Source: a virus
Taxonomy: Duplodnaviria > Heunggongvirae > Uroviricota > Caudoviricetes
IMG/VR virus record: IMGVR_UViG_2571042636_000009
Length of the DNA: 36,219 nt
Strand: one strand, 5' to 3'
Shown here in pieces: positions 22,775 to 22,792 of the stretch (the stretch's first letter is position 1; every line of letters begins with the position of its first letter). Below the pieces are notes generated by a model that searched no databases, was not told the origin of the DNA, and saw only the letters and a program-made list of their open reading frames with translations. A program made the translations under genes and the position numbers.

Positions 22775-22792
22775 GGGGCGGGAGCGTCGCGG
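22775..22792. other. Candidate cos site (cosN-like GGGGCGGGAGCGTCGCGG)
   Basis: Resembles the lambda left end GGGCGGCGACCTCGCGG; lies about 195 bp upstream of the small terminase start, matching the lambda cosN-to-Nu1 distance. Confidence 0.45.

Follow-up and report, generated by a model that had tools for sequence, protein, structure and literature searches.

We found that positions 22747 to about 22960 of the window (the whole 36,219-nt stretch of DNA analysed here) very probably constitute a lambda-type cos site, that of a lambdoid Escherichia coli prophage of the cdtI/Tritos/mEp460 group. Within it, a reading of the sequence alone had picked out GGGGCGGGAGCGTCGCGG at 22775–22792, the letters actually present there, as a candidate cos motif resembling the lambda left cohesive end. 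The nick positions, the contacts made by IHF and the small terminase subunit (TerS) and the activity of this particular copy are predictions from sequence and homology. The elements of the site and the two terminase genes, with bp counted rightward from the predicted top-strand nick, are the following.

22747–22753, plus strand: cosQ-like packaging-termination heptamer GGGTCCT, identical to lambda cosQ (lambda 48473–48479)
22754–22770, plus strand: variable 17-bp spacer between cosQ and cosN, with many substitutions and length-compensating 1-nt indels in close relatives
22771–22792, no strand assigned: cosN, 22 bp, CCACG/GGGCGGGAGCGT/CGCGG
22775/22776 (top strand) and 22787/22788 (bottom strand): predicted nicks
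22776–22787, plus strand: predicted 12-nt 5′ cohesive end GGGCGGGAGCGT
22793–22818, plus strand: I2-like AT-rich segment AAAAAGGCTAGTTTTTGCATTTCCAT, with A5 and T5 runs, positioned as lambda I2
22819–22838, plus strand: G+C-rich block GGCGGCGGCAGCATGTTTGG at the R3 position (bp 44–63), candidate primary TerS binding site
22839–22851, minus strand: I1-like IHF consensus, TATCAATAAATTA = WATCAANNNNTTR, exact match
22852–22959, plus strand: distal cosB, A+T-rich with short repeats and putative R2/R1-type TerS sites
22869–22878 and 22946–22955: TTTTCA(G/C)CTG repeat of distal cosB
22905–22914: AGACTAGTTT, repeating AGGCTAGTTT at 22797–22806 (AGRCTAGTTT, two copies)
22972–23499, plus strand: terS, small terminase subunit, 175 aa, with the PGAP start likewise at 22972
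23508–25607, plus strand: terL, gpA-family large terminase subunit (TerL), 699 aa (GpA_ATPase 5e-81, GpA_nuclease 1.1e-86)

In the cosN frame, 16 of 22 bases are identical to those of lambda (TTACG/GGGCGGCGACCT/CGCGG), whose record opens with GGGCGGCGACCTCGCGG, in agreement with the lambda sequence quoted in the earlier reading. Within the predicted cohesive end, 8 of the 12 bases, including all six of bp 1–6, are shared with lambda, the mismatches falling only at bp 7, 8, 9 and 11, and CG dinucleotides flank both predicted nick positions (CG/GGGCGGGAGCGT/CG), as in lambda. Counted from the sequence, two-fold symmetry of the cosN core extends to 8 of 16 bp here versus 10 of 16 in lambda, the latter figure agreeing with the published one (PMC9026076). 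At a tolerance of up to one mismatch, the window contains a single copy of the motif CGGGGCGGN6CGCGG versus 0.02 expected from shuffles; the observation is real and no product of chance. Natural cohesive-end variation and mutational tolerance are concentrated in bp 7–12, the Gifsy-1 end departing from lambda at bp 8, 9 and 11 (PMC4669245), and 12-nt 5′ cohesive ends are described for lambda, N15 and Gifsy-1 (PMC4669245; PMC4856287). A text search of papers for GGGCGGGAGCGT matched no phage paper.

Deposited genomes of the closest relatives are opened at the same nucleotide. In a megablast of 22400–23520 against phage records (query base 377 being window position 22776), position 1 of the cdtI (AB285204/NC_009514) and Tritos (OV696610) records fell on 22776; both records start with GGGCGGGAGCGTCGCGG and end in ...CTGCCACG (...GCCACG), the last base corresponding to 22775. 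Since these records are opened at the lambda-equivalent cut, the cohesive end is placed at 22776, which shifts the start given by the sequence-only reading rightward by one base, and the G at 22775 would, by homology, be the final base of the right end. The start points of the two records may themselves have been set by analogy with lambda; the cdtI record carries a circular flag, and a cos feature is absent from the annotation of the cdtI, Tritos and HannyBb records. Tritos, which resides in E. coli LF82 as prophage 3, is reported to produce virions and, once, to have formed plaques (PMC9928086). In cdtI, Tritos and HannyBb, TerS is 100% identical to that of the window and the DNA over cos and terS is 98.6–99.1% identical. 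The 12-mer GGGCGGGAGCGT is the same in cdtI and Tritos, and cdtI differs from the window by three substitutions within bp 34–63. Left of cosQ this group is mosaic, with cdtI departing from the window at ~22745. Altogether, ~624 of 5,426 complete E. coli genomes hold at least 80% of the cos–terS segment. The same E. coli phage region, with a TerS 99% identical, was also seen in JAGZPX010000007.1, whose label assigns the contig to a metagenome-assembled genome (MAG) of Veillonella parvula and which is almost certainly a binning contaminant.

The element to the left of cosN matches cosQ, the lambda packaging-termination signal, and its spacing to the nick is 22 bp in the window versus 23 bp in lambda. 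The composite GGGTCCT-N20-25-CGGGGCGG has a single occurrence in the window versus 0.00 expected. Among the window and its 85 close relatives from E. coli phages (86 sequences), cosQ is unchanged in every one although the adjacent spacer varies, and the cosQ–nick distance stays near 22 bp despite this variation. Segment 22771–22797, comprising cosN and the first five flanking bases, is identical in 85 of the 86, and the single cosN variant is changed at bp 7 and 12 only, so that variation in the relatives follows the functional asymmetry published for cosN (PMC4669245). At the cosQ position, other genera read GGGTCCT or AGGTACT. Homology to the window ends at 22743–22747, directly left of cosQ, in 22 of the 85 relatives. 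A near-perfect palindrome, TGATAATCATTATCA, lies directly left of cosQ in lambda (48440–48472 region) and mEp213, with a one-base variant in VT1-Sakai and Edwardsiella and a looser form in cdtI; it is absent from the window left of cosQ, where the mosaic junction (22743–22747) is found.

To the right of the cut, the I2-like segment has its counterpart in lambda I2, which spans bp 18–50 and is AT-rich with poly-dA/dT (PMC4856287), and GGCTAGTTTT within it is kept across genera. R3, which occupies bp 50–65 in lambda and bp 48–60 in N15 (PMC9026076), is represented in position by the G+C-rich block. This block is kept within each TerS type and changes with the variant of the TerS helix-turn-helix (HTH; HRD, NRG or HRQ), reading as follows.

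LHRDTV (E. coli window, Scandinavium): GGCGGCAGCATGT
LNRGTV (Providencia, Proteus, Yersinia, Rahnella, Xenorhabdus): TGTCAGCAGCAGGTG, with TGACAG... in Yersinia
HRQTV (mEp213, Fels-1, VT1-Sakai): CATCATCATCA

Because the block tracks the HTH type of TerS, these data suggest that it could be the primary TerS site, with the contacted bases assigned provisionally. In Fels-1 and VT1-Sakai, an inverted GATGATGA lies downstream of it. The IHF motif has the R3-position block on one side and the next repeat on the other, like I1 of lambda; the exact IHF consensus occurs twice in the window versus 2.2 times expected and is alone no better than chance, and across genera TAAYNNNTTGATW is kept at this position with the N positions varying. 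In distal cosB, a search of the window for lambda-style triple R repeats yielded only the two weak two-copy repeats listed above. At the corresponding positions, sister genera have a 13-bp inverted repeat (TTGAGGTGACA/TGTCACCTCAA), degraded in the window, together with TTCACCTGACAG. Scanning the cos interval for promoters, terminators and Rfam families gave nothing relevant.

The distance from the motif to terS had been likened to that in lambda, and it is indeed close: the conserved terS ATG at 22972 lies at bp 197 from the nick, as compared to bp 191 for the lambda nu1 start, and an alternative upstream ATG at 22960 (bp 185) would give a protein of 179 aa. The alignment of TerL to lambda gpA is full-length (24% identity, E = 5e-22), and the GpA_ATPase and GpA_nuclease domains of TerL, the lambda-family portal and the lambdoid gene order bear out the proposal of a cos-packaging lambdoid phage. 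Describing terS as Nu1-like proved apt only in part. The sole Pfam report for TerS is DUF1441 (PF07278), with no match to Phage_Nu1 (PF07471), and BLASTP against lambda Nu1 returned E = 4.6; hhalign of TerS against Nu1 gave a probability of 20% and E = 1e-3, with a colinear alignment. An AF2 model of TerS built with 45 database homologues (pLDDT 84.8) has a strand, two helices, a two-strand wing, a helix and then long helices; a single-sequence AF2 model was discarded (pLDDT 44.7). Foldseek with the TerS model returned nothing at E ≤ 0.001, and the winged-HTH matches of the TerS sequence profile against the PDB were all sub-threshold. As modelled, the N-terminal winged HTH would resemble the DNA-binding domain of lambda-like TerS proteins, and the predicted architecture is that of a lambda-like TerS. 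Thus, from the Pfam, BLASTP, profile and model results, the term is fair for the position, size and fold of TerS, not for its family membership.

This arrangement recurs well beyond E. coli. In a TerS protein scan with one genome per species (38 loci), a CG/GGGCGG...../CGCGG-type motif was found at a fixed distance upstream of terS in eight genera besides E. coli, namely Providencia, Proteus, Yersinia, Rahnella, Xenorhabdus, Scandinavium, Edwardsiella and Rouxiella, and the distance from the nick to the terS ATG is 196–197 bp in nearly all cross-genus loci. The blocks shared across genera are cosQ, the cosN flanks, GGCTAGTTTT, ATTTYCATG.TG.CAGCAGCAGGT, the IHF motif and the inverted repeat, with TTCACCTGACAG kept directly before terS. 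Recurrence of the layout in at least eight other genera, the opening of the relatives' records at the motif and its spacing to cosQ together sustain the proposal that the motif is a cos site.

Comparison with mEp460_ev081 separated two portions of the site. In every 20-bp bin of the stretch that begins 80 bp left of the nick and ends at bp 20, this phage is identical to the window at 19–20 of 20 positions, and it carries the same 12-mer GGGCGGGAGCGT and the same cosQ–I2 stretch; homology then weakens after ~bp 34 and has disappeared by bp 43. Beyond this junction, mEp460_ev081 reads TCATCACCAC, followed by an IHF-like motif and GTGGTG, and its TerS is only 42% identical to that of the window. 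With this switch, the left border of the TerS-specific cosB falls at ~22810–22818, and in these sequences cosQ–cosN–I2 and cosB–terS behave as two separately exchanged modules with a junction at bp 34–43. In mEp460_ev081 (LR597641, 45607–45865 joined to 1–30) we also noted a tandem duplication of ~100 bp over I2/cosB (GGCTAGTTTTTGAAATTTCATCCGTCATCACC...), owing to which terS is 285 bp from the nick; the duplication may be genuine or may have arisen in assembly. The R3-position block and an inverted terS-proximal site change together with the TerS HTH; these candidate sites read GGCAG where the HTH is LHRDTV (E. coli, Scandinavium) and GTCAG where it is LNRGTV (Providencia, Proteus and most of the remaining sister genera). 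Across sister genera they form two pairs around the 13-bp inverted repeat, unlike the lambda order of R3, inverted R2 and R1. It is conceivable, if rather doubtful, that cosB of the window's lineage defines a packaging specificity so far undescribed; were this true, natural chimeras would map the TerS–cosB recognition code of DUF1441 terminases.

These features can be accommodated in a scheme modelled on lambda. TerS dimers, with their DUF1441-type N-terminal winged HTH, would bind cosB at ~22819–22960 on concatemeric DNA, aided by an IHF-induced bend at 22839–22851, and bound TerS would place the gpA-type TerL on cosN. TerL would then nick at 22775/22776 in the top strand and 22787/22788 in the bottom strand, positions proposed from homology and from where the relatives' records are opened, to generate 12-nt 5′ ends of sequence GGGCGGGAGCGT. 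Packaging would run rightward, terS first, and stop at the next cos, the final cut presumably requiring cosQ (22747–22753), cosN and the I2-like segment.

The genes around cos are arranged in the order int–cI–Q–lysis–cos–terS–terL–portal–protease/capsid–tail. An integrase gene at 2–1297 is followed by those for a RecE-like exonuclease and a CI-like repressor, a Q-like gene and genes for an endolysin and spanin, with csp and gnsB morons preceding cos. Two further features of this context are given here.

27077–29296: fused ClpP-like prohead protease and major capsid protein, 739 aa (CLP_protease and Phage_capsid_4)
~14488–15809: IS10, with a DDE transposase ORF at 14598–15806, 98.7% identical to IS10 in EF120459

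The protease–capsid fusion is an arrangement reported also for Gifsy-2. Among the morons, the Rfam cspA thermoregulator RNA matches 20690–21105 (111 bits, E = 7e-29), covering a 5′ leader and the cold-shock coding sequence, with the cold-shock protein gene itself at 20844–21059; a GnsA/GnsB toxin gene ends at 21907 and a YbcW-like gene lies at 22203–22409 (phrog_657), its Tritos counterpart being a CDS named YbcW. This moron set resembles those of the Qin and DLP12 prophages. In the early region (9004–11133), two adjacent ORFs of 370 and 333 aa, with sub-threshold Pfam matches to HEPN_RES_NTD1 and GNAT, could be accessory or defence-type morons.

IS10 follows the Q-like antiterminator gene (13697–14089) at a distance of ~400 bp, and related phages match both flanks of IS10 without interruption. 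Polar effects of IS10 on the late operon, terminase genes included, may cripple late expression in this copy. We therefore considered that the cos sequence might be genuine but a silent relic served by an unusable or unexpressed terminase and hence never cut in this host, a situation we judge unlikely, decayed lambdoid prophages being nonetheless plentiful in E. coli. Against it, the ORFs for terS, terL, portal, protease–capsid, tape measure, integrase and repressor are all full-length and the critical parts of cos are identical to those of the plaque-forming Tritos. Moreover, Q-modified RNA polymerase generally reads through terminators, as in lambda late transcription. Such silence would in any case bear on the activity of the site and not on its identity, and is compatible with the assignment as cos.

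A lambda-type cos with nicks elsewhere, or spaced other than 12 nt apart so as to leave, for instance, a shorter overhang, is appreciably less probable still. The nick positions here are predicted, and Cr-LKS3, whose TerS belongs to the same family and is 38% identical to that of the window, has experimentally mapped ends that are 5′ cohesive with lambda-like flanking bases but only 9 nt long (PMC9303873). Nevertheless, the CG...CG flanks of the window are separated by exactly 12 bp and GGGCGG is retained, like in lambda, N15 and Gifsy-1; 22776 is the point at which two depositors opened their genomes; and cosN and the R3-position block have a lambda-like spacing.

Two ORFs run across the cos region.

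22493–22849, plus strand: 118-aa non-coding ORF running over cosQ, cosN and the first part of cosB
22645–22818, minus strand: 57-aa ORF, codon-position counts 23/18/20

The earlier reading had already discounted the 118-aa ORF as a gene, and comparison with relatives leads to the same view: it is broken in them by frameshifting indels at 22514, 22585, 22701 and 22731, its substitutions are spread evenly over codon positions (33/31/30), and homology over its N-terminal two thirds, to a point just left of cosQ, is gone in 22 of 85 relatives. Neither ORF has a Pfam match, and PGAP calls nothing at the equivalent of window positions 22410–22971 in an E. coli chromosome that is 99.9% identical. Both match PHROG families of unknown function (phrog_17397, 1.8e-7; phrog_35283, 1.7e-18), which are probably families built from miscalled ORFs over conserved cos DNA, and the HannyBb annotation has several small hypothetical CDS in the same interval. 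A chance G+C-rich match, with either ORF a real gene and the phage packaging by the headful (pac) mechanism, could draw only on these PHROG matches and HannyBb annotations, and we rejected it as having a negligible probability, given the motif statistics and conservation across genera at fixed spacing, the decay and flat codon-position counts of the ORFs, the lack of Pfam and PGAP support for them, and a TerL of the gpA family, whose compared members with mapped ends all have 5′ cohesive ends.

As a cos assignment this one is correct but ordinary: sites of this kind are known, and in effect so is this very one, because public genomes of the closest relatives already begin at 22776. The lambda cos architecture, the bp 7–12 variation and genomes of the group opened at this point are all public, and the end GGGCGGGAGCGT is already implicit in public cdtI, Tritos and mEp460-type genomes. 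For annotation, the left end of the mature phage genome would be 22776, the terS start is 22972 and the spurious 118-aa ORF should be dropped. Phages of the cdtI/Tritos type, whose possible cargo includes toxin and effector genes, should package any element with the same cos, for instance a PICI-like island or a cosmid, and the exchange of cosQ–cosN–I2 versus cosB–terS supplies natural chimeras for studies of packaging specificity.

Compared with known systems, the window shares with lambda the identical cosQ heptamer, an AT-rich I2 with poly-dA and poly-dT, an R3-position block followed by the IHF consensus, and a terS start followed by a gpA-type TerL. It differs from lambda in a cosB that is dissimilar to the lambda R sequences (CGTTTCCTTTCT type) and in a TerS of the DUF1441 rather than the Phage_Nu1 family, with a TerL only 24% identical. 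In a fuzzy search with lambda cosN, Gifsy-2 gave a weak match with seven mismatches, and VT1-Sakai and H905 gave none; by eye, VT1-Sakai has GGGCGGGCGGGC after a cosQ, Gifsy-2 offers no definite register and H905 has no obvious cos site, and these three were left out of the alignment. Cohesive ends in phages with a DUF1441-type TerS, as read from their sequences, are GGGCGGCGCGCT in mEp213/LLS and GGGCGGCAGCGG in Fels-1, within a lambda-like cosN whose variation is confined to bp 7–12. mEp213/LLS, mEp460, Fels-1 and VT1-Sakai differ from the window in the terS-proximal portion of cosB, which is of the CATCATCATCA type in Fels-1, VT1 and mEp213 and reads TCATCACCAC in mEp460, and their TerS proteins are only 33–42% identical to that of the window. 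All four have cosQ or a cosQ-like element, and their cosB follows the order R3–IHF–inverted R2.
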